Part shown: positions 4,629 through 48,107 of the stretch, in pieces
How the letters are laid out: the number at the start of each line of letters is the position of its first letter
How positions within the stretch are numbered: the first letter of the stretch is position 1
Source of the DNA: a virus
IMG/VR virus record: IMGVR_UViG_3300045971_000528
Coordinates: 42,082-106,081 of that record
Length of the DNA stretch: 64,000 bases
Strand: one strand, 5' to 3'
Notes under the pieces: model-generated
What the model was told of the DNA's origin: nothing
Databases searched by the model: none
The model's input: only the letters and a program-made list of their open reading frames with translations
Position numbers and translations under genes: made by a program

Positions 4629-5735
4629 TTAGCAGGCTCTTTCGTCAGGTTGCAGCATCGAGATCAGAGCACCGATGCGGGCTTGTTCGATGCCCTCACC
4701 GATTTCCTTGCCGCTCATGCCATCGGCCACGAACACGGGTGCCAGTTGAGAAGCCAGCGGTTGCGCGAGGCTGAAGCCACCCACCATTTCGCGGGCAGTG
4801 AATGTCTGCGCTGTGCCCAACTTCGCCGCGCCGTAGCTGATCAGCGTGAACAGCTCCAGGCGCTTTTCATTCTGCCAGCCGATGCGCCGCAGCAATGCAC
4901 TCAAATCGCGGGCGGTATGATTGGCTGTGCGGTTCTGGCTGATGAACTGCGCAAATGCCCAACCTTCGCTACCGCCGACCTGCATCGAGAACGCTTGATC
5001 ACTTTGCGCGATGGCTGTGAACGCCAGCACACGTTCGTCCTTGTTGAAGTTCTGGCGAACCCAACCAGCAACATCGGCGAGTCGCAAGGTGTTCATGCCG
5101 CGGAAGAAGCTGACGTGCTGGGTAACCTTCAGCTCATGCAGCATCTTGAAGAAGCGCATGCAGCCCTTGACCGTGCACGTCTTCAGCACCTTGACAATCT
5201 CGGCAGCGAAGCGCTCCCACGGCAGCTCATTCAGCTCGCCGCGTGCGACCATTTCCTGCGCGAATAACAGCGTGACGTCAGCGACCGTGAAATCCTCGAA
5301 GCGACCGTAGAAGCGAGCCAAACGAACGACGCGCAATGGGTCTTCCTTGAAGGCACTCGACACATGGCGTAGGATGCGCTTGTTGATGTCGTTGATGCCG
5401 TCGAACGGGTCGATGAACTCGCTGGTCTCTTCGTCCATGGCGATCGCATTGATCGTCAAGTCACGACGGCCCAGGTCGTCGGCCAGCGTGACATCTTCGT
5501 CGTAGTGCACCGCGAAACCGTGGTAGCCGGCCCCCGTCTTGCGCTCCGTGCGAGCGAGAGCGTATTCTTCACCCGTCGTGGGATGCAGGAAGACAGGGAA
5601 ATCGGCACCGACTTGTTCGTAGCCCATGGCCAGCATCTCTTGCGGGGATGCACCAACGACTACATAGTCACGGTCCTGGATGGAGTTGCCCATCAACAGG
5701 TCACGAACTGCGCCACCAACGAGGTATTGTTTCAT
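4629..5735 (-). CDS. cca: tRNA nucleotidyltransferase (CCA-adding enzyme)
   Basis: VGGAVRD, DxD, RRDLTINA, EDPLRVVR motifs. Confidence 0.95.
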   Translation of the reverse strand: MKQYLVGGAVRDLLMGNSIQDRDYVVVGASPQEMLAMGYEQVGADFPVFLHPTTGEEYALARTERKTGAGYHGFAVHYDEDVTLADDLGRRDLTINAIAMDEETSEFIDPFDGINDINKRILRHVSSAFKEDPLRVVRLARFYGRFEDFTVADVTLLFAQEMVARGELNELPWERFAAEIVKVLKTCTVKGCMRFFKMLHELKVTQHVSFFRGMNTLRLADVAGWVRQNFNKDERVLAFTAIAQSDQAFSMQVGGSEGWAFAQFISQNRTANHTARDLSALLRRIGWQNEKRLELFTLISYGAAKLGTAQTFTAREMVGGFSLAQPLASQLAPVFVADGMSGKEIGEGIEQARIGALISMLQPDERAC

Positions 5736-11334: not shown

Positions 11335-11949
11335 TCATACGATGATGCAGTTGCTTTCCTCGCAGCCCAGGATCTTAGAGCAAGCGAAGTAGTCGTGGCC
11401 GCTGAAGCCATAGTGTGGGTCGGTGAGATAGTGCACGCACTGACTCGAATCAAAGTCAGCACCGTCGTCAATGGCCACGTGACAGTCAATTTCCGGATGG
11501 TCACGCAGGAAAGCTTGAACCTCTAGCCCACGCTTTTCCCACAGTCGTGGTGTGACGCCAACCAGCTCGACCTCAAAGCCGAGCAGCTTCAGGTAGAGAC
11601 CCAGACATTCGAGGTGTTCAGGCGACCCGTACTCGATGTCGCATCGTCCTTCGAGAGCTGGAGACATTTTGCTGAAGTAGACACGGTGCGAAGAGGACAG
11701 CACAACCTTGGCACCTGACCGCTTTGCCAGCCGGTTGAGCAGCGACACTGAGGTTGGGCAGAATGTCTGGAAGGACTGGATGACACCGTAACCGAACTCG
11801 CCGCCCGGGCACTTGCTCAGGAGCTGCATGGTCCAGTCAGCGATCTCTGTCTCGGTGCCGTTGCTGGCTTCCCAATAGGTGCCGGTGCGGGCAAGACAGG
11901 ATGCGATGGAGTTTGCGACTCCATCGATGTCGAGGAAGATCGCCTTCAT
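11335..11949 (-). CDS. HAD-domain phosphatase (RNA-repair type)
   Basis: FLDIDGV, VVLSSS, AIDD motifs. Confidence 0.85.
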   Translation of the reverse strand: MKAIFLDIDGVANSIASCLARTGTYWEASNGTETEIADWTMQLLSKCPGGEFGYGVIQSFQTFCPTSVSLLNRLAKRSGAKVVLSSSHRVYFSKMSPALEGRCDIEYGSPEHLECLGLYLKLLGFEVELVGVTPRLWEKRGLEVQAFLRDHPEIDCHVAIDDGADFDSSQCVHYLTDPHYGFSGHDYFACSKILGCEESNCIIV

Positions 11950-23747: not shown

Positions 23748-23839
23748 TGGAGGAGACGGCGGGATTCGAACCCGCGGATCCTGTGAGGGACCTCAACCTT
23801 TCCAGGGTTGTGCAATCAGCCGGGCTCTGCCACGTCTCC
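23748..23839 (-). tRNA. tRNA-Ser(GGA)
   Basis: cloverleaf, long V arm, CCA. Confidence 0.92.
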
Positions 23840-23899
23840 AGATTGCTGGGATCGCTTTCACGATCCCGTAACTCTTCGTACACTTGGTACGTGAGCTAT

Positions 23900-24133
23900 T
23901 TACTTGGCGGCGGAAGCTGCCTTTGCCGGTACACGTGGGACCACGGTACTTGGGTGAACGTTCTTCAGATGCAGTGCCTTGGCAGCACTGCGTTCACGCT
24001 GATACTTCTTGACAGCAGCCTTGTTCTTGGCTGCTTGGGAAGCTGCAGTAGTTGGTGCTGAAGCTGCAGGTGCTGCCGCTTGAGCGACGAGTGAAGTGGC
24101 CAAAAGGGAGGCCAGCAAAAATGACTTGATCAT
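23900..24133 (-). CDS. small secreted Ala/Lys-rich protein
   Basis: signal peptide. Confidence 0.65.
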   Translation of the reverse strand: MIKSFLLASLLATSLVAQAAAPAASAPTTAASQAAKNKAAVKKYQRERSAAKALHLKNVHPSTVVPRVPAKAASAAK

Positions 24134-24408
24134 GGAAGATTCCTATTGTTTGGTTGGCAGAGGTGTCTCGCCGCCACCGGCGCGAGTATTTCTACGTTCA
24201 ACGGCAACCTGCACATCGGTCTTGCGGCGATTTCCGACCGCGGCGGTGCGTGGAAATCCGTTGAAGGTTCGGTAAGATGTAAAGCTGACACCACAGAGAA
24301 GCGCGAGAATCGTCAAATCTGCTGGTTTCATCTGTTATCTCCATCCATATGCGTATACCTGCCGGTGATATGGTATTTAGCAGGTTCTGCGCATGAAGCA
24401 CCGTTTGT

Positions 24409-24847
24409 ATTCAAAGTCCTATAGCCGGGGTTCTGTCTAGACCTGTCATTCATCTACGGCTTTCACCGTCCTCGTGGGGTTTCAATCCCAGTCATAGGTG
24501 CAACAACCCGTTCCCTCGGCGAGCAGCGTCAGCGAGAACTGTTTGTCTTGCTCCAGAATCGTTGTGGTGCAAACGGGGCTAGCCGTGTTTCCTTACTGCA
24601 AGTCCGTCATTCACGAGAGTAAACACAGAACATCTCATGACACTTTGGCGAAACAAACAGCCTCGCGCTTTGAAGCGAGTCCCCTCCCACAGAGCGATCA
24701 TCCTTGCTCTTCGGAGCCCCGAACTTCCTCTAGACGGTTAGGTTTGTACCACACGGACTGGTTTCATCGACTTGATAGTCTCCACCAGAGGCTCAGCACA
24801 ATTATCGTTGTCACCTAATTCGTCCAGCGACAGGTCGGACTTTGAAT
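24409..24847 (-). ncRNA. rnpB: RNase P RNA
   Basis: P1 TTCAAAGTCC/GGACTTTGAA, P2 GACCTGTC/GACAGGTC, GAGGAAGTTCGGGGCTCC, GGAGCAAG, AGATGAATGA, ACAGAACCCCGGCTATAG. Confidence 0.9.
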
Positions 24848-25011
24848 TCTTGTCCAATGGATCAAGTGAATGTCGAAGCATCCGATCACGAATGACCTTG
24901 ATCTTCGAACTCCCCTTGTCGCAGTACCAGCAGCTACAATAGATCTTGTGCTTCTGCCGGTTCATCTTGATTCCGCGATCACGGTTCTTTCGATCACTCA
25001 TTGAAGTATCC

Positions 25012-25105
25012 TGGCGGTGATGGTGGGATTCGAACCCACGGGCCGTCTTGCGACGACCTCTTCCTTAGCAGGGAAGCCCGATAAGCCTGGCTCTGGCACA
25101 TCACC
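25012..25105 (-). tRNA. tRNA-Ser(GCT)
   Basis: cloverleaf, CCA. Confidence 0.92.
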
Positions 25106-25110
25106 TTTGT

Positions 25111-25335
25111 TTACTGTCGCGATAGGTGCGACTTGATCGCTGCGCGCATCTTCGGCAGAGAGTCTGCCAAAATGGGCTTGTCATTCAGCCGAATGTAGTA
25201 GTGCCCAGGCTCTCCTGGGACATTCCTGAATCGAATCGTGCCAATGACCTTGTCACCACAACGAGCCTCATAAGTTCCTTCCTCTCGGTCGAGAACTTTG
25301 AGCACGATCTTGTCGGTGATTTCGAGTAGTATCAT
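25111..25335 (-). CDS. small late protein (MILLEI leader)
   Basis: ATAAATA 5 nt before ATG. Confidence 0.65.
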   Translation of the reverse strand: MILLEITDKIVLKVLDREEGTYEARCGDKVIGTIRFRNVPGEPGHYYIRLNDKPILADSLPKMRAAIKSHLSRQ

Positions 25336-25348
25336 GCAGCTATTTATG

Positions 25349-25433
25349 TGGTCCCCTCGGCGAGACTCGAACTCGCACGCCTTTCAGCACCGGATTTTGA
25401 ATCCAGCGCGTCTACCAATTCCGCCACGAGGGG
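25349..25433 (-). tRNA. tRNA-Leu(CAA)
   Basis: cloverleaf, CCA. Confidence 0.92.
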
Positions 25434-25637
25434 TTAGTTCTTGCAGGTGGGTGTCATGCCTTGAGCATCCACCCACTTCGTTAGGTTGCCGGCACGATCC
25501 TTGATCCACTTCTCACCGCTGATGCAGACGACTGAAGCGTTCGCATCGCGCTTGACCTTTGCTGTGGACATTGCGATGATCAACACCGAGATGGGCACGA
25601 TAGCTGCGATCACGGCGATTAGAAGGGTCTTGTTCAT
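25434..25637 (-). CDS. small membrane-anchored protein
   Basis: N-terminal hydrophobic helix. Confidence 0.55.
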   Translation of the reverse strand: MNKTLLIAVIAAIVPISVLIIAMSTAKVKRDANASVVCISGEKWIKDRAGNLTKWVDAQGMTPTCKN

Positions 25638-25649
25638 ACCTTGCCTTGT

Positions 25650-25741
25650 TGGAGGAGATGGTGGGATTCGAACCCACGGCCAGGTTTCCCCAGCTCCGCA
25701 TTTCGAGTGCGGTGCAATAAGCCAGACTCTACCACATCTCC
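25650..25741 (-). tRNA. tRNA-Ser(CGA)
   Basis: cloverleaf, CCA. Confidence 0.92.
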
Positions 25742-26169
25742 ATTGTTTCTCTGAGCCCTTGACGAATGTCCATCACGAGCTTTCCTAGTTTGTTCTCTCC
25801 GATCCCGTTGCAGACTCCCCAGTAGATGTCTCCCCAGGTGTTCGTCTCTTCGAGATACATGTCGCCCGTGTTGAGCAACCAGATCTGTTCTTTGCCGTCC
25901 GCGTACTTTTGGAAGTTCACGTCAGCCATAACGTCATCACGAATTCCTTCGTACCAACCCGGTCGAATGACGACCTCTTGACCAAGGCGGCGTGCATCAC
26001 GTGGCTTCTCAGCGGCTTGGATGACTCGACGATGGTCGAGGTTCAGGGTCTTCGCTGCTTGATACGCGTGTTCAGTCGTGCGGTAGATCTCACCGTCATA
26101 CACCACCTTCTTGAAGTGGAAGTTGGAGAGGAACCGAAATGGACCGAAGAAACCGCGGATTGCTTGCAT
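25729..26169 (-). CDS. NADAR (YbiA-like) family protein
   Basis: FLSNF, EHAYQAAK, DIYWG, GENKLG motifs. Confidence 0.9.
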   Translation of the reverse strand: MQAIRGFFGPFRFLSNFHFKKVVYDGEIYRTTEHAYQAAKTLNLDHRRVIQAAEKPRDARRLGQEVVIRPGWYEGIRDDVMADVNFQKYADGKEQIWLLNTGDMYLEETNTWGDIYWGVCNGIGENKLGKLVMDIRQGLRETMEMW

Positions 26170-26172
26170 AAT

Positions 26173-26248
26173 TGGCTCCACCTCCTGGGCTCGAACCAGG
26201 GACCCACTGATTAACAGTCAGTTGCTCTACCAGCTGAGCTAAGGCGGA
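26173..26248 (-). tRNA. tRNA-Asn(GTT)
   Basis: cloverleaf, CCA. Confidence 0.93.
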
Positions 26249-26257
26249 ATGGAATAT

Positions 26258-26336
26258 TGGGGTGGTTGGTATTGTAGCTGCAGATTCGAACTGCTTGAAA
26301 CCATTCTACACTAAGAGTCAGTCAGTGGCCACCAAC
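26258..26336 (-). ncRNA. minimal tRNA-like RNA (T-arm, CCA end, no cloverleaf)
   Basis: GCAG-TTCGAAT-CTGC; GTTGGT/ACCAAC closing stem. Confidence 0.4.
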
Positions 26337-26392
26337 TTTCTCTGATCGGCCGATCACCTGCCCCTCTTGCGAAGGGACCCACCCGTTTTCTG

Positions 26393-26479
26393 TGGTGCGC
26401 GGGGCGGGACTCGAACCCGCATGCCGGTTAAGGCGTCAGGACCTAAACCTGGTGCGTCTACCAATTTCGCCACCCGCGC
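26393..26479 (-). tRNA. tRNA-Leu(TAG)
   Basis: cloverleaf, CCA. Confidence 0.92.
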
Positions 26480-26485
26480 AGAAAC

Positions 26486-26622
26486 CTTGATCTGAACACC
26501 GACAAAAGGCGATGTCGGAGATTGCCCACCTTTACCAAAGGGCATGGACGAATCGAACGTCCTCGGTTCTATTTCCACAATTGAAGGTAACCAACAATCA
26601 AGCGGTCGGTCTTCAGATCAAG
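26486..26622 (-). ncRNA. Y-RNA-like element 2
   Basis: shared module plus T-arm GGACG-TTCGATT-CGTCC. Confidence 0.7.
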
Positions 26623-26627
26623 ATTCA

Positions 26628-26702
26628 TGGTGCCCCAGGTAGGAATCGAACTCACGACCTACCGCTTACAAGGCGGTTGCTCTACCACTGAGCTACTAGG
26701 GC
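26628..26702 (-). tRNA. tRNA-Thr(TGT)
   Basis: cloverleaf, CCA. Confidence 0.9.
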
Positions 26703-26712
26703 ATTCAAACTT

Positions 26713-26788
26713 TGGAGTGGCGAGCCAGAATCGAACTGAGCTTCTGAAGGGTTGCAGCCTTCCGGATGGACCAATCTCCCACCGCCAC
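26713..26788 (-). tRNA. tRNA-Cys(GCA)
   Basis: loop CTGCAAC, U73, CCA. Confidence 0.8.
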
Positions 26789-26804
26789 ATTATCTGTTAT
26801 TGTA

Positions 26805-27092
26805 TCACACTGTCAGGACTTCGTGTCCTTCAACAGTCAGGTTGTCCTCTTCTTCTGGAAGCGGATCCTTTGGAATCTTCTTGAGCCAGTCCTGAGGAAC
26901 ATGAACTGTCTCGCCAATACCACCGTACTCGGAGATGAGATCACTGCCTTGGCTCTTCACAAGCCAGATGGTGCCATGTTCAGGGTGCCCGATGTAGTCG
27001 ATCTGAACGCACTCGACGATCTTGCCGGTGGAGTGTCCGTCCAAGCTCTTGATGACCACAGCGAGATCACCTGGTTCTAGTGAGTTCGACAT
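26805..27092 (-). CDS. hypothetical protein
   Basis: 95-aa ORF. Confidence 0.6.
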   Translation of the reverse strand: MSNSLEPGDLAVVIKSLDGHSTGKIVECVQIDYIGHPEHGTIWLVKSQGSDLISEYGGIGETVHVPQDWLKKIPKDPLPEEEDNLTVEGHEVLTV

Positions 27093-27304
27093 CAGACGCC
27101 TGTGCGAAGTTCAGTGATGTGAATCTGTTGGCCGGTGAGCTTCTCGCCGATCACTGTGGTGTCGAGAGCAACCTTGTTGATGAGGTGCGTACCTTCACCG
27201 AGCACACTGACGTCTGCACCAAGTTCGCGCAGCGCGCGTGCGATCGCAACCAAGATGTAGCCCTTACGGGAATGATCTGGACCGCTGACTTGAATCTGAA
27301 CCAT
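27092..27304 (-). CDS. hypothetical protein
   Basis: AGGAG RBS. Confidence 0.6.
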   Translation of the reverse strand: MVQIQVSGPDHSRKGYILVAIARALRELGADVSVLGEGTHLINKVALDTTVIGEKLTGQQIHITELRTGV

Positions 27305-27322
27305 CGCTGTCTCCTTGTGGTT

Positions 27323-27414
27323 TGGTAGGACCGCTCGGATTCGAACCGAGATCGTGCGCTAATCTGGCGCTCATGGCTTATAAGGCCACCGCTCTACCGT
27401 TGAGCTACAGTCCC
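27323..27414 (-). tRNA. tRNA-Ile(TAT) with long variable arm
   Basis: loop CTTATAA, CCA. Confidence 0.8.
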
Positions 27415-27459
27415 TTGGACTGTAGGTATTCGTGAAAAATCCATGTCAAAACTCCTTGA

Positions 27460-27533
27460 GGGTTGCGGGACCCTGAATCGAACAGTACTTCCGGGTTATG
27501 AGCCCAGTGTGCGGCCTCCACACTCGTCCCGCG
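27460..27533 (-). tRNA. degenerate initiator-like tRNA-Met(CAT)
   Basis: C1:A72 mismatch, GGG/CCC anticodon stem; mismatched T stem, no CCA. Confidence 0.6.
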
Positions 27534-27543
27534 ATTGATCTTT

Positions 27544-27629
27544 TGGTGCGCCGGGTGGGCCTCGAACCCACAATCCCGGAGGAAGCGGGGCTTAAACCCG
27601 CTGCGTATACCCACTTTCGCCACCGGCGC
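27544..27629 (-). tRNA. tRNA-Leu(TAA)
   Basis: cloverleaf, CCA. Confidence 0.88.
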
Positions 27630-27634
27630 CTTGT

Positions 27635-28033
27635 TCAGGTCTTTGGTAAGCGGACTGTCTTGATGTGAGCTGCTGCAGCCATATCGAATGAAACGATGTG
27701 ATCGTGCAGAATCTCTTCGAGACTCAGAATTGTTTTCTCATTCGACTTCGCCGGCGAAGTCGCAAGCATGTGCATCGCTTGGGCAAGCTCCTTATGGCGA
27801 GCTCGGTGAAGATCAAGACCTGGGCAACCCATGCGCTCCATCAGCGTCTCTTCAACGATGAAGTGCCGGCAGAGCTCACCACAAAAATCAGCGAGCTCGA
27901 TCTGAATGAGATTTTGCGGCACACAAGCAGTAATCATCGCTGCTATGTTCGTAGCCATGATGAGTAGGCTGAAGTGATCAGCGTCCATTTCGAGTACGCC
28001 TGTGGCATACTTGCTTGTCACTTCGGTCATCAT
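27635..28033 (-). CDS. bacteriohemerythrin-like protein
   Basis: MDADH, HF..EE.LM, H...H, HI...D iron ligands. Confidence 0.85.
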   Translation of the reverse strand: MMTEVTSKYATGVLEMDADHFSLLIMATNIAAMITACVPQNLIQIELADFCGELCRHFIVEETLMERMGCPGLDLHRARHKELAQAMHMLATSPAKSNEKTILSLEEILHDHIVSFDMAAAAHIKTVRLPKT

Positions 28034-28063
28034 GGATTTACGCGAACGTCTCCGGTTTTATTT

Positions 28064-28138
28064 TGGTGCCCATGGAGAGAATCGGACTCTCGACCTCCCC
28101 CTTACCAAGGGGGTGCTCTGCCACTGAGCCACATGGGC
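28064..28138 (-). tRNA. tRNA-Thr(GGT)
   Basis: cloverleaf, CCA. Confidence 0.92.
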
Positions 28139-28148
28139 GTTTTTCTAT

Positions 28149-28436
28149 TTAGGCATCCGGGGGTCTATTCAACCTATTTCTGCCGATGTGGTAGCCATCG
28201 CAGTGAATGCACTTGTAGTTGGAGAAGTAGCAGCTGTTCTTCTTGGTCATGGCTGCAGCAGACTTCTCAGCGGTGGCCTTGGTGTTGTACATCACCTTCG
28301 GCTTACCCGATCCCTGAGCAACGTGTGAATTGATGTGGAACAGCCCCCACGCATTGCGAGTGATGAAGAAGTTCCGAAAGAACCGAAGTGGCGGCCCTTG
28401 ATCCAAGAGAGCCAACCAGAGGTTTCTCAGCTTCAT
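28149..28436 (-). CDS. hypothetical protein with C-terminal CxxC...H zinc motif
   Basis: YKCIHCDGYHIG; AAGGA RBS. Confidence 0.65.
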   Translation of the reverse strand: MKLRNLWLALLDQGPPLRFFRNFFITRNAWGLFHINSHVAQGSGKPKVMYNTKATAEKSAAAMTKKNSCYFSNYKCIHCDGYHIGRNRLNRPPDA

Positions 28437-28454
28437 GATTGTTCCTTGATGTAG

Positions 28455-28529
28455 TGGTGGAGACCGCGAGAATCGAACTCGTCTAGACATCCTCGCTGCC
28501 AGCGAGAACCGCAACCCATTGCTGCCCCC
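28455..28529 (-). tRNA. tRNA-Ala(GGC), atypical D arm
   Basis: G3:U70, loop CTGGCAG, CCA. Confidence 0.7.
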
Positions 28530-28670
28530 AAAATTCTGTGAGGAGCTTTGACTCCTCTCGCTAGCCCCTTCCCTAAGGCTTCTCCTCGAGACCGGCCGGG
28601 ACGTCGAGGGTCTTATCGCTTCTCAGTTTAGCTAGACGCCTTTCGGCGGCACCCTTGCGGGATTCTTGTG

Positions 28671-29273
28671 TTAGCGCAATGAAAGGACGCCATCCTTGAA
28701 GTGGAAACCATCAGCCATATTGGCTGGTTTACGCACGAGTTCTCGAAACGTGCGCTGCTCGCCAGAAACCGCAGCGATTCTTTGCTGTCCTGACGGATGG
28801 GTTCCAGATGCACCAGTGACGCTAAGCAGCTTCGTGAGGCCGGGTAGGATATTCAAACCAGCGTCTCGAGCTATTGCGACGCCAAGAAGATCGGCATCGT
28901 ACTCGCGGTTCCAGGTTTCTTGCTCATTCTTTGGTAGCACAGAGAGATCAAGTTGATGTGAGTGGCCCAATGCGCAGTGAGCAAGCTCGTGAGCAACCGC
29001 AGCAGTGAAGGCTTCACCATCCATACCCTTGAGGAAGGTTGATGACACCTGGAGGCGGCAACCATCGGTGTACACAACAAACGGAAATCGCGGTGCTGAC
29101 GAATCTTCCTTGATGGTGAGAGTTGCCGCGGGTACTCTTGGTGCGTAGTGCGCAAGATGCTCTACTACGGTGCGGGCTTCTTCTTGAGGCATCGCCTGTA
29201 TGCACGGCACAGTGAAGGCAGACAAGAGGATGAGCAGCAATCGAGCTGCTCGGGGCTTGATTTGTCGGTCCAT
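28671..29273 (-). CDS. M48-family Zn metallopeptidase, exported
   Basis: HELAH, EYDAD, THP motifs. Confidence 0.85.
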   Translation of the reverse strand: MDRQIKPRAARLLLILLSAFTVPCIQAMPQEEARTVVEHLAHYAPRVPAATLTIKEDSSAPRFPFVVYTDGCRLQVSSTFLKGMDGEAFTAAVAHELAHCALGHSHQLDLSVLPKNEQETWNREYDADLLGVAIARDAGLNILPGLTKLLSVTGASGTHPSGQQRIAAVSGEQRTFRELVRKPANMADGFHFKDGVLSLR

Positions 29274-29485
29274 AGATGCATTATACACCAATGGGGGTCC
29301 GCGTACAGGTTACAGTGTAACAACTGCCTGCATGTTCTCGGCTGCACTTTCCTACCTTGCTCCTGGATTCGTTGAAGCGATCTACGTTCGGGCGGCCTAC
29401 GAAAGTGTATCAGCACGCCTCAAGGCATTTACAACCTAGAGAGACGGAATACGGTAGCGAACCATTTTCCGTCTCTCATTCTGTT

Positions 29486-29560
29486 TGGTCAGGGACCTGG
29501 GAGTTGAACCCAGACTACTCGGCTCCGGACCGAATCGGCTGCCACACGCCTCCGTCCCTG
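29486..29560 (-). tRNA. tRNA-Pro(CGG), atypical (C33)
   Basis: C1:G72, A73, CCA. Confidence 0.65.
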
Positions 29561-29751
29561 TTGTGAGGGGGCTCAAGCCACTGGCCAGTGACTAACGACG
29601 GTATCCTGACAGTTAGAGCCGCGGCCCCACTTGCACATCCCGTTCTCGCTAACTTGAACCACTTTGTTCGGCCCTATCGTAGGCGCATCTTACGATGCCG
29701 AAGTAGCCGATGCTGCGCAAGCATCGATCTTCCTACGCCTAAGGACTTGAT

Positions 29752-29839
29752 TGGTGCGGGTGAGAGGACTCGAACCTCCACGGTCGCAATGACCAACGCC
29801 TTCTGAAGACGCCGCGGCTACCAATTTCGCCACACCCGC
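29752..29839 (-). tRNA. tRNA-Leu(CAG)
   Basis: cloverleaf, CCA. Confidence 0.9.
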
Positions 29840-29970
29840 AATATTCGTGGCCCTTTATTCGGCTTCCGCCTTATTCTCAAACCGGCTTGAACGGATCCTT
29901 AACCCACCCCGGTACCATTGGGTGGAGGAGCGACGGTACTGCATACGCCAACGCTGCAGTTACGACAACT

Positions 29971-30060
29971 TGGTGCCCTGAGTCGGACTCGAACCGACAT
30001 CCACTAGTTTCGTGGCCGACCTTCTCAGGGTCGTGTGTTTACCAATTTCACCACCAGGGC
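29971..30060 (-). tRNA. tRNA-Leu(GAG)
   Basis: cloverleaf, CCA. Confidence 0.9.
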
Positions 30061-30068
30061 AGAATACA

Positions 30069-30226
30069 TTGACAGCAAAGGAGCGAGACGGAGATTCCCT
30101 TTCGGGAAGACTGGTGCGTCTGCCAATTTCGCCACCACCGACAACGTTCATCGGCGGGAAGGACTCGAACCTTCATGCCCTGTTACGGGCGCCTGTTTGA
30201 GATAACCATACTCTATCGGCTGTCAA
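30069..30226 (-). ncRNA. Y-RNA-like element 3 (circularly permuted tRNA-Leu-like cargo)
   Basis: V/T arm, loop-closed acceptor stem, then D arm GGCGAAATTGGCAGACGC. Confidence 0.8.
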
Positions 30227-30305
30227 ATCTTGGTGGTTGACTCCACCTGCTGCTTGGCCTCTGCCGTAGATCAACGGTGACGGTTGCAGCGCCTTGCTAT
30301 TGTCT

Positions 30306-30394
30306 TGGTGTTCATTGGCTGGGAATCGAACCCGTACGGACGGCATCAGTCCGCGTCTACCAACCCAGATCGCCTTAGGGACTGGCCAATGAAC
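30306..30394 (-). ncRNA. tRNA-like RNA with 10-bp acceptor stem and extra arm
   Basis: GTTCATTGGC/GCCAATGAAC + ACCA; TTCGATT loop. Confidence 0.55.
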
Positions 30395-30400
30395 GAATTG

Positions 30401-30480
30401 TGGTAGCGGGGGCGGGATTTGAACCACGCGATCTCTAGCTTATGAGGCTAGCGGGAACGGCCAGGCTTCCCTACCCCGCG
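30401..30480 (-). tRNA. tRNA-Met(CAT)
   Basis: loop CTCATAA, C1 mismatch, CCA. Confidence 0.8.
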
Positions 30481-30794
30481 TCAGATTACTTGAAGTTGAA
30501 ATGGTCCAGCAGATCTGCTGGAATCGTGTCAAAGTGAAACTCAACAACTTCCAGGCCGGTACGAAGATCACGCGTCGAATCATGGATCGACTGGCGTGGG
30601 CCACGTGGCTGAGAGAGGTTGGTCGGTGGGCGCAGATCATCTCCATGGAGAGTCGTATTCACCCAATCGCGAACACCAGCATCACGGCTGGCAGATGAAC
30701 TACCGGTCATTTTCCTGGTCCTTTCACTGTTGAAATTCATGGGGCATGCTGAGCAAAATCCCCGAGGTCCTGCTTCCGCGGCCTCATATTGTTT

Positions 30795-30880
30795 TGGAGC
30801 GGGTGATGAGAATCGAACTCACATGCGACTTGCGTCTGCCGGCTTGGAAGGCCGGTGCCCTGCCAATGGACCACACCCGC
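30795..30880 (-). tRNA. tRNA-Gly(TCC) with long variable arm
   Basis: loop CTTCCAA, U73, CCA. Confidence 0.8.
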
Positions 30881-30889
30881 GTTAGTGTT

Positions 30890-30963
30890 TGGAGCGGAAG
30901 ACCGGAATCGAACCGGCGACTAAACGATGGCAACGTCTCGAGATACCACTTCACCACATCCGC
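30890..30963 (-). tRNA. tRNA-Gly(GCC)
   Basis: cloverleaf, CCA. Confidence 0.8.
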
Positions 30964-31219
30964 ATACGGGGGAATTCCACACCCCTCTCGATGTCAAGGC
31001 TTGCTGTCAGTACGGTTTCCCGTTCTTACCATGACCAGATCCACGAGTGAGACCATGTTCTTCTTGACGTCACGGCTTTCTGTCAAGGTCGCTTCCTTCA
31101 TCCCTCTGCATTTTGAGGGCCGTCCGTACGACTTGCGGTCGTAGAAGCTAACGTGGGGTGAGGGAAGGAGTGCGTGCCTTCATTACTCCACGACCTCCCC
31201 TGGTCGTGGCCTCCGAATT

Positions 31220-31327
31220 TGGAGCGGGATAAGAGACTCGAACTCTCGACCTGAACCTTGTTCTAGACACGTCATTTCTTCGATGCCTAGAGGCAAGGTT
31301 CCGCTCTACCAACTGAGCTAATCCCGC
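31220..31327 (-). tRNA. tRNA-Gly(GCC) with 32-nt hairpin insertion in anticodon loop
   Basis: canonical body; insert at 31260-31291. Confidence 0.8.
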
Positions 31328-31640
31328 ATGGCGCTGACTAGGCTGTCACAGCGCTGTGATGCATTCACCGGCTGGGCATGGGTAACCCATTCTCCTGCAC
31401 CTTCCAGCTGAGGACAGCAGCTGAAAACTGTTCGTGCGTGGTGGCACTTTCGAACGTACCGGCCACATTGCACTAGGGACCGACTGAACTTCAGTCGGGG
31501 ATCCACCACCTTGTTCAGAAGGGAACAAGGAACCTTGATCATTGAACTCAACGACTGCACATCCTGAGAAGGAATTTAACGACTTTGTCAGCAGTCTCGC
31601 GTTATAAAGTGGGGTGTCTCGGTTACTAACCCACACGTTC

Positions 31641-31878
31641 AAAAGGGTTCAACAGGTAGGAATCGAACCTACATCTCCCAGCTCCACGCCAGGGCTCTGA
31701 CCAATATGAGCTACCGTCGAAAGGGGTTGTCTTAGCCAGGATTTCGAAACCTGGACCTCCCGGGTACACCGGGCGTGCTCCCATTACACTACAGACAAAG
31801 GGGTTTGCTTCACGTAGAGTTCGAACTACGTCCTTCCGGTAGAAATCCGGGTGTGCTTGACCTTACACCATCAGCAAA
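31641..31878 (-). ncRNA. three tandem tRNA mimics with aberrant anticodon loops and no CCA
   Basis: D and T arms intact; each ends AACCC(C)TTT. Confidence 0.65.
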
Positions 31879-31881
31879 ACT

Positions 31882-31958
31882 TGGTCGGAGTACAAGGATT
31901 CGAACCTTGGACCCCCTGGTCCCAAACCAGGTGCGCTACCAGACTGCGCTACACTCCG
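31882..31958 (-). tRNA. tRNA-Pro(TGG)
   Basis: cloverleaf, CCA. Confidence 0.93.
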
Positions 31959-31967
31959 ATGAAACTA

Positions 31968-32084
31968 TTGCAAGCAAAAAGCGATGAAGGAGTTGCTCCC
32001 CGACTGGAGCTTGGAATCCCTTTCGAGACTCCATGGAGTCGAACCATGCATCTGTAAGATAACCTTCAACAAGCGGCTTGCGAA
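31968..32084 (-). ncRNA. Y-RNA-like element 4 (YrlA-type T-AS-D order)
   Basis: CATGG-TTCGACT-CCATG, GAAA-capped stem, D-like hairpin. Confidence 0.8.
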
Positions 32085-32093
32085 TTCTATTTA

Positions 32094-32199
32094 TCATAGA
32101 GCCCTTTGTCTGGGCGGCAGGATTCGAACCTGCGATCTATCGGGTCCAGACCGAGGATGTTGGCCAGGCTACACTACGCCCAGACAAAGGACTCTATGA
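32094..32199 (-). ncRNA. tRNA-Pro(TGG)-like body on an extended 23-bp stem, no CCA
   Basis: flanks TCATAGAGTCCTTTGT/ACAAAGGGCTCTATGA pair. Confidence 0.6.
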
Positions 32200-32210
32200 C
32201 TTCAATTCAA

Positions 32211-32268
32211 GAGAACAAAAGGCGTTGAGGGCTGTTTCATAGCCTGATAACCCTCAACAACGGTTCTC
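32211..32268 (-). ncRNA. Y-RNA-like element 5 (minimal, module only)
   Basis: GAGAACCG..GTTGAGGGTTATC..CCCTCAAC..TTTTGTTCTC. Confidence 0.7.
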
Positions 32269-32273
32269 GTATT

Positions 32274-32360
32274 TGGTGCGGGTAAGAGGACTCGAACCTC
32301 CACTCCCTTGCGGGAACAAGCACCTCAAGCTTGCGCGTCTACCAATTCCGCCATACCCGC
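32274..32360 (-). tRNA. tRNA-Leu(GAG)
   Basis: cloverleaf, CCA. Confidence 0.92.
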
Positions 32361-32433
32361 ATGAATCTCTCGAGGACGGTTGCAGCGTCCTCTTCCCTAA
32401 CCGGCTATTTGCAACGACCGGATCGGAGTACCT

Positions 32434-32509
32434 TGGTGGAGGATATCGGTCTCGAACCGATCACCTCAAGCTTGCAAAGCTAGCGCTCTCCCAGATGAGC
32501 TAATCCCCC
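32434..32509 (-). tRNA. tRNA-Ala(TGC)
   Basis: G3:U70, CCA. Confidence 0.9.
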
Positions 32510-32527
32510 AAAAATCTATCTTCAAAC

Positions 32528-32617
32528 TGGCGGGGTCGGTGAGATTCGAACTCACGGGCCGATTTCTCGACCGTCGGTTTTCAAGACCGGTGCGTTAGAC
32601 CGCTCCGCCACGACCCC
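32528..32617 (-). tRNA. tRNA-Ser(TGA)
   Basis: cloverleaf, CCA. Confidence 0.92.
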
Positions 32618-32623
32618 ATTGTC

Positions 32624-32701
32624 TTGCGTCCCGTACAGGATTTGAACCTATGTTGCCGCCCCGAAAAGAGGCAGAGTCCTGAGCCACTAGACGAACGGGA
32701 C
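32624..32701 (-). tRNA. tRNA-Glu-like with expanded anticodon loop, no CCA
   Basis: Glu-type body; 9-nt loop TCTTTTCGG. Confidence 0.55.
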
Positions 32702-32709
32702 AAACAAAT

Positions 32710-32785
32710 TGGTGGAGGCCGGGAGAATCGAACTCCTCTAGTCACAGTGCTTGCAAGGCACCGCCGGATCCCAATCACTGCCCCC
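32710..32785 (-). tRNA. tRNA-Ala(TGC), atypical D arm
   Basis: G3:U70, loop CTTGCAA, CCA. Confidence 0.7.
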
Positions 32786-32789
32786 AATT

Positions 32790-32873
32790 TGGTGTAGTCG
32801 GTTGGATTCGAACCAACGCGTCGTTAGAGACTGTTTTACAGACAGCCGGTTTCAGCCACTCACCCACGACTAC
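32790..32873 (-). tRNA. tRNA-Tyr(GTA)
   Basis: cloverleaf, CCA. Confidence 0.88.
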
Positions 32874-32962
32874 ATAATTGTTCCCCTAGTCAGGGGGTGA
32901 ACCTCAACTCATCACCGTTCCGCGGTACAAACGCGATCCTCCGAGTTGAAACTCATACATCT

Positions 32963-33048
32963 TGGTGGGTAGCCTAGGAGTCGAACCTAGTGTGCCGTAA
33001 GGCGGCGGGGTTACAGCCCGCTGCAGTCGCCAGTGCTGCTCGCTACCC
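32963..33048 (-). tRNA. tRNA-Tyr(GTA)
   Basis: cloverleaf, CCA. Confidence 0.85.
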
Positions 33049-33128
33049 ATGAATTTTCCATTTGGGAATCACACTTACCTTGGCTATCCCTTGCGGGCCC
33101 TCCGAAATGAGGGAGTATGATTACCAAA

Positions 33129-33203
33129 TGGTCGGAACTGTAGGGATCGAACCTACGACCTTCGCCTTGTAAGGGCACCGCTCTACCGCTGAGCTAAGCT
33201 CCG
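33129..33203 (-). tRNA. tRNA-Val(TAC)
   Basis: loop CTTACAA, CCA. Confidence 0.85.
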
Positions 33204-43045: not shown

Positions 43046-43120
43046 TGGTGCGCCCGGCGGGAATCGAACCCGCGCCAAAGGATTTAGAATCCCCTACTCT
43101 AACCGCTGAGCTACGAGCGC
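43046..43120 (-). tRNA. amber suppressor tRNA (anticodon CTA)
   Basis: stem GGGGA/TCCTT, loop TTCTAAA, CCA; own TATAAT just upstream. Confidence 0.8.
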
Positions 43121-43430: not shown

Positions 43431-43448
43431 ACGGACCCGAAGGTCCGT
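43431..43448 (-). terminator. cUUCGg terminator after tmRNA
   Basis: ACGGACC-TTCG-GGTCCGT followed by T-rich tract. Confidence 0.7.
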
Positions 43449-43454
43449 GTCGGA

Positions 43455-43740
43455 TGACTCAGCGAACTGAGTCACCTACCGTTTGATGACAAGGACCGGG
43501 TGTCCTCGCAAAGCTTACGCCGCTAGGCGCAGTCCTTCGAAGTTAGCATCGTTTGCAGATACTTGGTTTTGCTTGATTTACGGTCATCGCCTACCGAGCG
43601 CAAGAAAAGTTACTAGTCTGTCGGTCGATTACCAGATCACCCCCATCAGAAGAACACCCGCAGATGCGCTTATGGTGGAGGTGGGGGGATTTGAACCCCC
43701 GTGTCGCCAGCATTTCTCAGTCCTCGTTTACGCTGTTATT
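43455..43740 (-). ncRNA. ssrA: circularly permuted (two-piece) tmRNA, tag ANDANFEGLRLAA
   Basis: T arm and CCA (ending 43673) precede 5' GGGGGTG (43644); G3:U wobble; tag at 43515-43556; outer ends approximate. Confidence 0.92.
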
Positions 43741-44356
43741 GGAAGCCTGGGTTCAGGCGTCCCAATTTCAAATTCTTCGTCCTCTCGTCAGTGATGGCAA
43801 GCAGAAAATTGGTAGTTGAATCATTATACCACCTTTTCCCGTACGTGCCATTCTTTTTGCACTTTTTGTTTTCGATCCATTCGCTTGACAAAATCCATCC
43901 AACAGGTTGATCACCACGAACAAACCTCCTTCGGTCGCCATCAGCATCTCGATAGATGCTCGTACCAAATGCAGAATTTGTATCGCCTTGCTGGTGGTTG
44001 ATCGATGCGTATGTGTTCTTCCGTTTAGCAACCGCTTCTGGTGTGGAAGCCTGGGCCGTGGCATATTCTTGGTTCTTCGTATTTAGTTTCCAATTAGCAG
44101 ATGTCGGCTTTTTCCAGGGTTGATTTGCAGCGACTGCCTTATGACCACCTAGTCTTTGCAGCTCATGCACTAATTCTGACTTCGAGATAATTCCTGCCAA
44201 ACCTTTCCAAGCCAACTTGTCCTCTACTCTACCGTGCGTTTCATAGAGCAGCCGGTGTGCTTCGGCGTGTTCAGCAACGGTGAGCAGTTCTATGTTGTCT
44301 GGAGAATCTGTTCCACCAGCATGTGTGGGAATTTTGTGATGACGATGTTTCAACAT
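43736..44356 (-). mobile_element. HNH homing endonuclease
   Basis: HHKIP..GG.D..DN..L...EH...H; AT-rich; TATAAATA 4 nt before ATG. Confidence 0.88.
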
Positions 44357-45666: not shown

Positions 45667-46020
45667 TCATTGCTTGTCCGTCCACTGGTTGTAGAGCTTC
45701 CAGCCCAGCACCACCTTCAAGCGCTGGTCGATGCTGGTCGTTGAGCGGCCAAGTTGCCACGCGCAGTGGGCAAGGTCGACGTCCATGAGGTGACCACCAT
45801 TCCCGCCAGCCCGCTGCGTAGCAATGTGCTTGAGCACATCATCTTCGGCCGGACTCCAGCGTGCGCCGAGGCGCGGACGATCGGTCCACGGCGGCATGGC
45901 TGGGTTCAGACCAAGCTGCGGGAACAACCAGGTCTCGGCCTTCTTTAGCGCACGTTGGCGCTGGATCTGCGCATAGACATGCGCTGTGGGATTGAATTGG
46001 GGGCGATAGCGGTAGGTCAT
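45667..46020 (-). CDS. hypothetical protein with Myb/HTH-like motif
   Basis: RWSPAEDD..LGRSTTSI..RL. Confidence 0.55.
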   Translation of the reverse strand: MTYRYRPQFNPTAHVYAQIQRQRALKKAETWLFPQLGLNPAMPPWTDRPRLGARWSPAEDDVLKHIATQRAGGNGGHLMDVDLAHCAWQLGRSTTSIDQRLKVVLGWKLYNQWTDKQ

Positions 46021-47033
46021 GTCAGGTAGTCCACGATTTGCTTGACGCGTTGTTCGACTGTGCCACCCACGTAGAGCGGGTGAAGACCACGATGTTTGAG
46101 CATTGTACCATACCAGAGCCAGGCACGGTCACGGAACTCAGGACTCTCCCGCGTTCCGTCCTGCTCGAATGGGATCTCGTTGCCGCACATGATGTAGTGG
46201 CTGTACGGCCGTTCGGAGAGTTCGCGAAGGCGCGGCGAAACGTGGCTGTTGAAGAGCTCCTTGCTGTACCACATCGTGGTCAGTGGAGTCGTGTCGCACA
46301 CCAAGAACCCCTTCGCTTGACGTGCGATCTTCCGTTCCTCGTCAACCTGCACTTCCGCGATCTTCAGCATGTCGTTGTAGCAAAGTTGGTCCGTCCCTCC
46401 GATTCGCTCGGTTAGTGTACGTCCATATTCGGGCACCCAGGCTGTGCCCAGGGCGTCAGCAAGCGCCTTGGCCAGTGTCGTTTTGCCACTGGATTCACCA
46501 CCCAGGATGGCGATTCGGGGCACCAAGCTGGCCTGCACGAATTGGCTGACGTTTGGAATCTGGCCTGGAATACCGCGCCGTGCTTCGGTGCCGCTGATGG
46601 GGAATACCTTGCGTTCCAAATCTACGCAGATGTGATCCACCTGGTGCGACACGAAGAACCGGTCTTGGTAGTAGTCCATCGCGAACTTCGCAAACCCGTC
46701 GCCGTATTCCTCGCTCGTGAAGATGGCGTTGACTACCGCATCACAGCTGTCGATGCAGAAATTCAGGCAGAACTGGCGATGGTAGTCAGCGTCCTCGTGA
46801 TCGAACGGAATGTAGTTCGGCTCGAGCACGTAGATCTCGACATGCTTCAGGTGGCCAAAGGAGGTGTTCAGCCAGAAGCGCCGCTCATCAGCGTGGCAAC
46901 CAGGATGTACGAGGTCGGTGTAGCTGAGCACGATAAGCCGCTCGCATTGGCCAGCCGCCGTGCTGATGAGGTACTCGTGACCAACCGTGAGTGGGCAGAA
47001 CTTGCCGACGACGAGACCGGTTCCGTACATCAT
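46017..47033 (-). CDS. nadR: NadR-type NMN adenylyltransferase / ribosylnicotinamide kinase
   Basis: GKFCPLTVGH, ISGT, GGESSGKTT, EYGR, QDGTR. Confidence 0.92.
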   Translation of the reverse strand: MMYGTGLVVGKFCPLTVGHEYLISTAAGQCERLIVLSYTDLVHPGCHADERRFWLNTSFGHLKHVEIYVLEPNYIPFDHEDADYHRQFCLNFCIDSCDAVVNAIFTSEEYGDGFAKFAMDYYQDRFFVSHQVDHICVDLERKVFPISGTEARRGIPGQIPNVSQFVQASLVPRIAILGGESSGKTTLAKALADALGTAWVPEYGRTLTERIGGTDQLCYNDMLKIAEVQVDEERKIARQAKGFLVCDTTPLTTMWYSKELFNSHVSPRLRELSERPYSHYIMCGNEIPFEQDGTRESPEFRDRAWLWYGTMLKHRGLHPLYVGGTVEQRVKQIVDYLT

Positions 47034-47746
47034 TCCACCTTCATGTTCTGAACGCGCTCGTTCACGATCTTGTTGATCCAGGCTTCGTTCGCCTCAGAGA
47101 GCGGCACCGTCTTCCCATCTTCCTGATCATCGAACAGATCGAGCCAGTGGCGCCATGCAACGATCGCGTTCACCCAGCAGACAGCGTAGAGAGCGGCCGA
47201 CAGGTACAGCTCACGATAGAAGTAGAGCGGCACAGACAGCGTGTTGACGAGCAACCACACTGGCCAGTTCTCGATCTTGCGGCGCATCAGGAGCAGCTGA
47301 CCGACGATGCTGAATGTGAGCACTAAGCTGTCGATACCGGGTGACCATGCATCAGTGAACGTGTTGAGCAAGTAGCTGTAGCCGGCGGCGACGAGGATGG
47401 CAATTCCAGCCATGATCGCAAGGGTCTTCGGTTCAGTCTTCGTGATCGGCAGTTCACCATTGCCATTGCGCTGGTCATCGCCGACAGTCAGGAGACCGCC
47501 AGTGTTCTCGATTGACATTCTGGACTTCTTGACCCATGCCACCCAGCCGATGATGCCGGTAGCGACGAAGAAGATCTGCAACGTGGCGTCAGCGTAGAGC
47601 TTGGCGTCGAAGAACACCTTGCCGTAGAGGACGCAAGCGAGGATGCCGATCCACCACGTGTGGATGTTGTTGCGACCGGCGAGGATGATGCAGGCAGCAG
47701 TCGTGATGACTGCTGCCCATTCGTAGTAGGTGGTACCGAGGAACAT
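47030..47746 (-). CDS. pnuC: nicotinamide riboside transporter
   Basis: multi-TM, LYAD..LQ, KIENW.W; coupled to nadR. Confidence 0.92.
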   Translation of the reverse strand: MFLGTTYYEWAAVITTAACIILAGRNNIHTWWIGILACVLYGKVFFDAKLYADATLQIFFVATGIIGWVAWVKKSRMSIENTGGLLTVGDDQRNGNGELPITKTEPKTLAIMAGIAILVAAGYSYLLNTFTDAWSPGIDSLVLTFSIVGQLLLMRRKIENWPVWLLVNTLSVPLYFYRELYLSAALYAVCWVNAIVAWRHWLDLFDDQEDGKTVPLSEANEAWINKIVNERVQNMKVE

Positions 47747-47756
47747 GGTGCGTCTT

Positions 47757-48107
47757 TCAGATGATTTCAGGATTGAAGTACTTGACGGTGACGTCGTGTA
47801 GACCGGCGTGGTACACTTCGCCCTTGACGCCGACCGAGGTTTCCCAGCCGTCGAACTGAAGAACCCAGACTTCGTCTGAGCGCTCAATCATCACGCGACA
47901 GTGCTGACCCCATTCTTCCCACGTCGCGGCAGTGCTCGGCATGAAGCGAAGCAACTGGTAGTCCTGCACCATCGGCGCCCAAAACGTGATGTCTGGAAAC
48001 CGCATTTGCAGCGCAGCGAATGCACGAAGGAACGACTCGTTCAGGGCGCCATCAGTGACGGTGCCCTTGGTCGGGATCGCGATGAAAACCAGTTTCCGCT
48101 TGCTCAT
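47757..48107 (-). CDS. DUF1937 / nucleoside deoxyribosyltransferase-like protein
   Basis: FIAIP, GWETSVGVKGE. Confidence 0.75.
   Translation of the reverse strand: MSKRKLVFIAIPTKGTVTDGALNESFLRAFAALQMRFPDITFWAPMVQDYQLLRFMPSTAATWEEWGQHCRVMIERSDEVWVLQFDGWETSVGVKGEVYHAGLHDVTVKYFNPEII

Follow-up and report, generated by a model that had tools for sequence, protein, structure and literature searches.

The window examined here, a stretch of 64,000 nucleotides (nt) from a virus record of IMG/VR (IMGVR_UViG_3300045971_000528, positions 42,082 to 106,081), carries on its minus strand, at 24409-24847, a 439-nt homologue of RNase P RNA that reads from 24847 to 24409 (all positions are those of the window). 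RNase P trims the 5' end of new tRNAs, and its RNA, which is among the few universal ribozymes, is treated as a cellular and organellar gene. The 30 tRNA genes of the window, a two-piece transfer-messenger RNA (tmRNA) and a tRNA with a CUA anticodon all lie on the strand of the RNase P RNA, and 28 of the 30 tRNA genes, by Rfam and tRNA-gene calls, form an array at 23748-33203 (minus strand) whose transcripts are the presumed substrates; an Rfam scan of the window at gathering threshold returned 28 tRNAs and the permuted tmRNA. Judged from its sequence, the element is the phage-encoded RNA subunit of RNase P, derived from a bacterial type A rnpB. The first-pass annotation had already proposed a phage-encoded RNase P RNA with a divergent specificity domain, and this proposal is sustained by alignment to the Rfam model RF00010, by covariation, by the provenance of the contig from a virus collection and by the 30-tRNA array.

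In a search with an E-value threshold, RF00010 (RNaseP_bact_a) aligned to the RNA from model position 1 to 367 with a score of 32.6 bits (E-values of 2.4e-8 in a 1-kb search and 6.2e-10 in a genome search). The limits of the gene and its strand, which had been assigned correctly, are set by this full-model alignment, by an 11-bp P1 helix that closes the molecule and by an alignment with 22 relatives. The score is low because the specificity domain (S-domain) fails to align, the model columns for P8-P14, J11/12 and J12/13 being all unaligned and skipped between P7 and the return strand of P10.

Evidence for a conserved structure comes from an alignment of 23 variant and minimal members of the family, including the window's copy, onto which the RNase P secondary structure was written with P4 and P6 as pseudoknots. 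Standard pairs fill 98.7% of the 1,500 paired cells (32-46% once the 3' strands are displaced by one to three columns), two-sided (compensatory) change is seen in 45 of 66 pairs, and the observed measures were reached by none of 500 shuffles. The covarying helices are P1, P2, P3, P5, P6, P7, P10, P15, P16/17 and two hairpins in the P18 region; P4, by which the members were pattern-selected, is the exception. No helix of the window's copy contains a mismatched pair, and every family-invariant nucleotide is present.

The P1, P2, long P3, both P4 strands and conserved 3' blocks that had been noticed at the outset could all be located in the RNA. P1 joins AUUCAAAGUCC (24837-24847) to GGACUUUGAAU (24409-24419) by 11 bp, with 100% of cells paired and compensatory change in nine of ten pairs, and P2 joins GACCUGUC (24829-24836) to GACAGGUC (24440-24447) by 8 bp, with 99.4% paired and compensatory change in all seven counted pairs. 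P3 (24730-24827) has a conserved base, CUGGACG/CGUCUAG (24821-24827 and 24730-24736; compensatory change in three of five pairs), beyond which lies an 84-nt lineage-specific insertion (24737-24820), where the relative at locus L029 instead has a 5-bp P3 with a GAAA cap. This insertion is kept in a second phage, whose contig, encoding the protein P0002, is the sole relative sharing it. The catalytic domain (C-domain) is otherwise near-identical in the window and L029, whereas the flanking open reading frames (ORFs), P3 and the distal S-domain cannot be aligned between them. The 5' conserved block of the RNA reads GAGGAAGUUCGGGGCUCC, and conserved region I (CR-I) with the 5' strand of P4, AGGAAGUUCGGGG (24717-24729), lies in GGAAGUUCGGGG, includes the bulged U and is invariant in 23 of 23 rows. 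It pairs with 24421-24428 in a pseudoknot of eight pairs, 99.5% paired and invariant within the pattern-selected set. The J5/15 block, GGAGCAAG, is also present. J5/7 (24704-24712) contains the 5' strand of P6, GAGC, which pairs with GCUC in the P17 loop (24516-24533); this second pseudoknot is 98.9% paired, with compensatory change in three of four pairs (GAGC/GCUC, GAAC/GUUC and GAGU/ACUC). An alternative helix between J5/7 (AGAGC) and CGCUCU after P7 was rejected, being broken in relatives in which the same bases covary perfectly with the P17 loop. P15, P16/17 and loop L15 (CGGGUUG) span 24502-24547; compensatory change affects two of three pairs in P15 and four of six in P16/17, and L15 keeps GGU within an invariant GGGU. 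In type A RNAs, the GGU of L15 binds the 3'-CCA of the tRNA. P18 is replaced by two hairpins (24456-24490), P18a with a conserved loop AUUGAAA and P18b, in each of which all four pairs show compensatory change. The segment 24420-24455, which aligned to the RF00010 consensus at high posterior probability, comprises invariant columns of J18/2 (AGAUGAAU, within the block UAGAUGAAUGAC), the 3' strand of P2, and J2/4 with the 3' strand of P4 (ACAGAACCCCGGCUAUA, 24420-24436); the 3'-end block is ACAGAACCCCGGCUAUAGG.

The catalytic domain is thus complete, with the P4 pseudoknot and its bulged U, CR-I, CR-V, J5/15, the GGU of L15, P6, J18/2 and J2/4. It shares with bacterial type A RNAs (rnpB, M1 RNA, RF00010) the helices P1-P5, a P4 with bulged U flanked by CR-I (GNAANNUCNGNG-like) and CR-V (ACAGAA...), the J5/15 block, P15 with the GGU of L15, P16/P17 with the P6 pseudoknot that is a hallmark of the type, a P1-P2-P3 framework with invariant J18/2 (UAGAUGAAUG) and J2/4 (ACAGAA), and P7 and P10. 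It differs in being phage-encoded within a tRNA array with no linked rnpA, in three changed P4 pairs, in the 84-nt P3 insertion, in the replacement of P18 by two hairpins and in the loss of P8, P9, J11/12, J12/13 and any recognizable P11-P14. Set against the sequence of E. coli M1 RNA, the three P4 pairs are changed on both sides with pairing kept (A67-U359 to G-C, G68-C358 to U.G and C71-G356 to G-C), and the bulged U69, A65 and A66 are retained. Further compensatory changes in P4 are found in a member from the phage DLP6, described below.

The unusual P4 strands made it possible to find relatives by exact-pattern scans of viral contigs and metagenomes (37 loci from the metagenomes; L numbers designate viral and metagenome loci alike). 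After chance matches had been discarded, 30 unique sequences had both P4 strands at RNase P spacing; the matches in L003, L008, L009, L012, L014, L015 and L016 were coding sequence or lacked the second motif. These RNAs define a clade with a common P4 signature, GGAAGUUCGGGG / ACAGAACCCCGGCUAUAG, together with GGAAGUUCG...CGGCUA, GUGGGAG-hairpin-CGUU..ACCAC and two hairpins before J18/2. The window has the P4 strands, a GUGG-RAG-helix-GYUUGYA-CCAC stub, the two hairpins before J18/2 and the location in a tRNA array; the relatives, too, are nearly always in tRNA arrays, with tRNAs or permuted tmRNAs beside them. In 185,579 prokaryote species (one genome each), the exact pattern matched 14 times, 12 of these being chance matches (coding sequence, or second motif missing). 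Since the two remaining matches, with both motifs, are contigs of metagenome-assembled genomes (1.7 kb, also carrying tRNAs, and 12.7 kb), no cellular lineage whose own rnpB bears the P4 signature was found among these species genomes by the exact pattern.

Within the clade, three grades can be distinguished. The canonical type A grade, with P8, P9, J11/12, J12/13 and P13/14, is represented by L013 (255 bits), L021 (163 bits), L038 (161 bits) and L002 (141 bits), of which L013 (L013:10022-10397) lies within a complete phage genome of 299,875 bp with terminal repeats. The variant grade, without P8 and P9, scores 56-68 bits with Rfam, and the minimal grade, 241-256 nt long, 55-64 bits (L010, 63.5 bits; DLP6, 54.7 bits), although the minimal L051 was absent from the Rfam matches at E <= 1e-4. 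The window's RNA, with its 32.6 bits, has the lowest score of the clade. The DLP6 member comes from a cultured Stenotrophomonas phage, in which the biology is directly testable. Its 249-nt RNA (KU682439.2:105774-106022; L073:1501-1749) is unannotated, lies between the coding sequence AAY80_165 and a tRNA-Arg gene, ending 3 nt before the latter, and has the family stub and covarying P4 pairs. It was detected solely by running RF00010 on the DLP6 record; three blastn queries (the window's RNA, one minimal and one variant member) returned nothing relevant from 50,697 phage records, because the family is too divergent or too short. DLP6 and the window share the clade signature and the tRNA-array location, and the window's RNA, at 439 nt, adds to DLP6 and the other minimal forms a 102-nt insert at the tip of helix H1 (see below) and the 84-nt P3 insert. 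The close apposition to tRNAs seen in DLP6 recurs in L004:8731-9146 and L054:3936-4463, where the gaps are 0-9 nt on one or both sides and the next tRNA is 0 and 2 nt away, respectively.

Three loci of the family call for separate mention. An 82-kb contig (L007:7469-8190, plus strand) holds only the 3' part of the RNA (P18b, J18/2 and the 3' strands of P2 and P4), immediately behind a 212-aa ORF assigned by eye, from its motifs, to the GIY-YIG type of homing endonucleases; the 5' half was not found within 11.5 kb, and the gene is either disrupted or split. In L017, a 5.7-kb viral contig (minus strand, ~5278-5296), a variant RNA looks as if its P15-P17 were followed by a nested second unit, RNase-P-like but partial, that has CR-I-like and CR-V-like blocks of its own; this extra unit would reflect either partial duplication in tandem or an artefact of assembly. 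The variant RNA at L011:11761-12105 shares its tRNA array with a GOLLD RNA (L011:7888-8305, plus strand, 201 bits).

The grades differ in the S-domain, which in the window extends from P5 to P5 (24551-24716) and in which P5 (24713-24716 with 24551-24554), P7 (24695-24703 with 24555-24561) and P10 (24687-24690 with 24564-24567) all covary. In the variant group, a CUCU/AA internal loop separates P7 from P10 in place of P8 and P9; P10 is followed by (G/A)AG and then by H1, a helix with a conserved 7-nt bulge, GYUUGYA, on its return strand. In the window, H1 is GGGG/CCCC (24681-24684 with 24575-24578); it exists in 23 of 23 rows in many compensatory versions, closed by an invariant G-C. The conserved S-domain remnant of the window is confined to P7, the CUCU/AA loop, P10 and the base of H1, and the complete type A domain, with its P7-P10 four-way junction, P11-P12, CR-II, CR-III and P13/P14, is not there. 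The earlier remark that no type A specificity domain could easily be recognized therefore holds for the unaligned P8-P14 columns and goes too far for P7, P10 and the H1 base, which are kept and covary. In minimal members, a small loop caps H1 (GAAA in L010, UAAC in L051), and the DLP6 stub, read by eye, is alike. Members of the main variant group have, beyond H1, a junction with a conserved A-rich module, GCCA-YAAAGAAAAGGAUGAUA-UGGC, that resembles a shrunken unit of P11, J11/12 and J12/13. This module was sought in the S-domain of the window and not found; UAAGGAAA, common to the window and L004, was considered as a remnant of it and discarded as not significant (z 1.4). Instead, the inside of H1 holds an idiosyncratic 102-nt insert (24579-24680) with hairpins predicted from the single sequence. 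It does not significantly resemble the equivalent part of the RNA in any relative (z -2.1 to 1.4), not even in the closest ones, L029 and L054 (z -0.1 to -0.2), whose inserts of 48 and 74 nt are of unrelated sequence, whereas comparisons of distal S-domains within the main group give z 8-23.

In RNase P RNA, the tRNA elbow is read by the S-domain, the very part that is altered here. This, the permuted tmRNA and some oversized tRNA-like genes in the window, and the chance that the A-rich module of the main variant group could be a reduced elbow reader, would be consistent with a remodelled S-domain that redirects RNase P to non-canonical phage substrates (tRNA-like elements, the two-piece tmRNA) or favours phage precursors. 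We nevertheless consider such retargeting quite unlikely. The A-rich module is absent from the window, and the distal S-domain is not conserved in L029 and L054, which is the opposite of what would be expected of a tuned recognition module. L010, L051 and DLP6 have no distal S-domain and yet reside in equally large tRNA arrays. Moreover, a 3' CCA is encoded by 26 of the 30 tRNAs, which have canonical T-loops (UUCGAAU type); encoded CCA ends suit a type A core with an invariant GGU in L15 and give no reason for a special elbow reader. For the same reasons, and since the progressive loss of the S-domain throughout the family counts against it, the suggestion of the first-pass annotation that the RNA may be tuned to atypical tRNA-like RNAs nearby finds no support. 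The 102-nt distal and 84-nt P3 inserts look like lineage-specific expansions and not like a tuned recognition module, and what is peculiar to the window's RNA has the look of neutral expansion, not of a new mechanism. The loss of P8 together with the replacement of P18 by two covarying hairpins looks like a joint remodelling of tertiary contacts, because in type A RNAs the loop of P18 docks into P8, a contact that helps full-size RNAs (PMC5839562).

As regards function, we consider it probable that the gene specifies a functional RNase P RNA of the phage, complete in its catalytic domain and with no more than a vestige of the S-domain, that is released from a tRNA transcript and uses the host protein RnpA. 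The RNA would be co-transcribed with the phage tRNA array, which fits the absence of any promoter-like or terminator-like site above chance in a scan around the gene on its own strand, and would then be freed from the polycistronic transcript. Since the RNA abuts tRNAs in relatives, tRNA processing would release it, and the ribozyme would owe its own 3' end to the cut that RNase P makes at the downstream tRNA. The RNA would most likely assemble with host RnpA, because no phage RnpA (PF00825) was found in the 106-kb record or in the records of five relatives, including the complete 299,875-bp genome. The putative holoenzyme would cleave the 5' leaders of ~30 phage pre-tRNAs and of the two-piece tmRNA, adding or securing processing capacity during infection. 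Substrate recognition would probably rely mainly on the acceptor stem and CCA end of the tRNA and on the leader, as it does in engineered ribozymes reduced to the C-domain and in natural minimal RNase P RNAs. The CCA-adding enzyme (tRNA nucleotidyltransferase) that had been invoked alongside the RNA is indeed encoded in the window (4629-5735, minus strand; a 371-aa frame with a 75.7-bit match to PF01743). The corollary that the phage commands both tRNA end-maturation steps is overstated, for 26 of the 30 tRNAs already encode CCA and the enzyme therefore looks like one for CCA repair or completion.

The absence of a phage RnpA also means that the host protein must be either used or competed for, which raises the alternative that the RNA is not mainly an enzyme and acts as a decoy or regulator, slowing tRNA maturation in the host by binding its RnpA or by competing with its M1 RNA, or has another role at the RNA level. 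There is a precedent of sorts in the camelpox RNase-P-like RNA, which is inactive on pre-tRNA in vitro and has been discussed as a possible decoy (PMC3001073). Such a role seems difficult to reconcile with the invariant P4 bulged U, J5/15, GGU of L15, P6, J18/2 and J2/4, none of which an RnpA decoy needs, and with the position of the gene beside its presumed substrates in every relative; besides, a decoy would starve the phage's own 30 tRNAs of processing. It strikes us as rather improbable.

Several observations weigh against a working ribozyme and have to be set against the intact core. There is no RF00010 match to the window's RNA at the Rfam gathering threshold (32.6 versus 100 bits), so that the Rfam check suggested at the outset gave a full-length match by E-value and none by gathering score. 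The three altered P4 pairs depart from near-universal bacterial ones and include the equivalents of A67 and G68 of E. coli, whose phosphates are implicated in metal binding, although pairing and the bulged U are kept. With P8 and a canonical P18 both missing, a P8/P18 tertiary contact is impossible. An 87-aa ORF covers the first 110 nt of the RNA. Finally, the source record is only 29% complete by CheckV (the phage genome being, by extrapolation, roughly 350 kb), so a phage RnpA or another cofactor could be encoded elsewhere. Some of these points might suggest a decaying relic, that is, a captured rnpB being lost, with the P3 and S-domain insertions and the ORF overlap as signs of degeneration. 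The lowest Rfam score in the family, two large unique insertions, an ORF reading 110 nt into the RNA and the L007 locus, whose lone 3' fragment indicates that loss does occur, would all be in accord with this scenario. However, the window's copy retains all helices of the conserved core and all nucleotides that are invariant in the family, its two insertions extend the tips of P3 and H1, and such tips are places of tolerated expansion in RNase P RNAs, and the P3 insertion is kept in a second phage, which makes decay very unlikely.

The overlapping ORF (24738-25001, minus strand) starts 10 nt after a tRNA-Ser(GCU) gene (25012-25105) and ends 110 nt into the RNA, running through P1, P2 and most of P3. 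It is probably a real gene for a small basic protein with a Cys motif whose tail overlaps the RNA gene. P0002, its sole homologue in the database, matches it over the stretch that P1 and the start of the P3 insert encode, and has a C-terminal end that corresponds to the window's other reading frame, the frame having shifted in the P3 insert. This switch implies that indels which shift the frame build up in the P3 insert, whose evolution is that of an RNA and not of a protein. In L029 and P0002, too, the upstream ORF reaches the 5' end of the RNA without a stop and terminates inside the RNA, so that in three related phages the stop of the Cys-motif ORF is supplied by the RNA gene, inside P3, in two different frames. 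Were the RNA excised from the transcript, the Cys-motif mRNA would become non-stop, and the phage has its own tmRNA. Elsewhere, about ten main-group loci (L004, L023, L025, L028, L033, L036, L037, L041, L042 and L045) encode, immediately before the RNA, a conserved protein of ~57 aa (LLEW.E.EVR.HHYDPVETPP...ELLRRL) whose stop codon is usually a UGA inside P1. A constant protein gene preceding the RNA was nonetheless rejected, as the neighbour is the HHYDP protein in ~10 loci, a lipoprotein in five, a tRNA in L054 and the Cys-motif protein in the window's subgroup. The ORF/RNA overlaps are a matter of tight packing and define no conserved partner protein.

An unlikely reading, which nevertheless deserves mention, goes further than the working ribozyme assisted by host RnpA proposed above. 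It would see in the clade a natural stepwise minimization of the ribozyme within one viral lineage, from canonical type A through forms that lack P8 and P9 and have a miniature A-rich module to a bare stub, the window's enzyme having no elbow reader, and in its extreme form a phage factor would replace host RnpA, the candidate being the small basic Cys-motif protein encoded upstream of the RNA in the window, L029 and a third contig. If true, this would amount to a self-contained viral RNase P that sustains the phage tRNA supply when host RNase P is shut off or targeted.

Known systems offer partial parallels. The engineered type A ribozyme consisting of the C-domain alone (Eco CP RPR) is reported to remain active, though less efficient, whether the C5 protein is present or not, and to need a P6-like interaction for efficient cleavage (PMC5839562). 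The phage RNA is like it in combining a catalytic domain with the lack of a working S-domain, and P6 is strictly kept in the phage family; it differs from that construct in being a natural gene with a P7-P10 stub, unique insertions and a remodelled P18 rather than a laboratory deletion. A natural RNase P RNA that has lost most of its S-domain and evades standard covariance models is the ‘type T’ RNA of Thermoproteaceae (Pyrobaculum), which is archaeal, with multiple archaeal protein subunits (PMC3579882), whereas the 439-nt RNA of the window is viral and derived from type A. The RNase P-like RNA of camelpox and other orthopoxviruses is virus-encoded as well, with a loose structural similarity to RNase P RNA and no activity in vitro (PMC3001073); the phage RNAs differ from it as clear sequence homologues with a complete covarying core.

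Full-text literature searches found no publication on a phage-encoded RNase P RNA, and the camelpox RNA was the sole published viral RNase-P-like RNA found in them (PMC3001073). A survey of huge phages lists tmRNA and CCA enzymes and nowhere mentions RNase P (PMC7162821), nor does the DLP6 genome paper. As such genes are missed at the Rfam cut-off, phage annotations would under-report RNase P RNAs. New from the window are a full-length member that carries two insertions specific to its lineage, the conserved P7-P10-H1 stub and the joint change of P8 and P18, and its family adds a frame in the form of a shared P4 signature and a series from canonical to minimal. This series, from a 255-bit canonical RNA to one of ~250 nt, shows which parts can be discarded or replaced (P8, P9, P12-P14 and P18) and which are indispensable (P4, P6, L15, J18/2 and the P7-P10 stub). 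Viral RNase P ribozymes would surprise specialists, and phage copies would add tRNA 5' maturation to the translation functions of large phages, next to tRNAs, tmRNA, the CCA enzyme and aminoacyl-tRNA synthetases.

A few other features of the window deserve mention. The CUA-anticodon tRNA (43046-43120, minus strand) is of the amber-suppressor type, called ‘Pyl’ by ARAGORN, and lies ~300 nt from the two-piece permuted tmRNA (43432-43785, minus strand), which is of the betaproteobacterial type (90 bits); their proximity might indicate that TAG is reassigned, or stop codons are read through, in some portion of the phage genome. A 105-nt tRNA at 31223-31327 (minus strand) is called by Rfam and not by ARAGORN, and several more tRNAs are oversized, among them Ile-UAU with 92 nt (27323-27414) and Gly-UCC with 86 nt (30795-30880); the oversized tRNAs may carry insertions or introns. 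Inside the tRNA array there is also a gene with a NADAR domain (25729-26181, minus strand). A group of NAD-related genes, which include NAD salvage, lies at 46017-52235 (minus strand) and encodes a protein with an AAA_28 domain (PF13521), a PnuC-type transporter of nicotinamide mononucleotide, a NAMPT-like phosphoribosyltransferase and a cytidylyltransferase-like (NMNAT-type) domain fused to NUDIX. Lastly, a HAD domain of the kind found in ‘Swiss-army-knife’ RNA-repair proteins is encoded at 11335-11949 (minus strand), and the window also encodes a non-specific nuclease.

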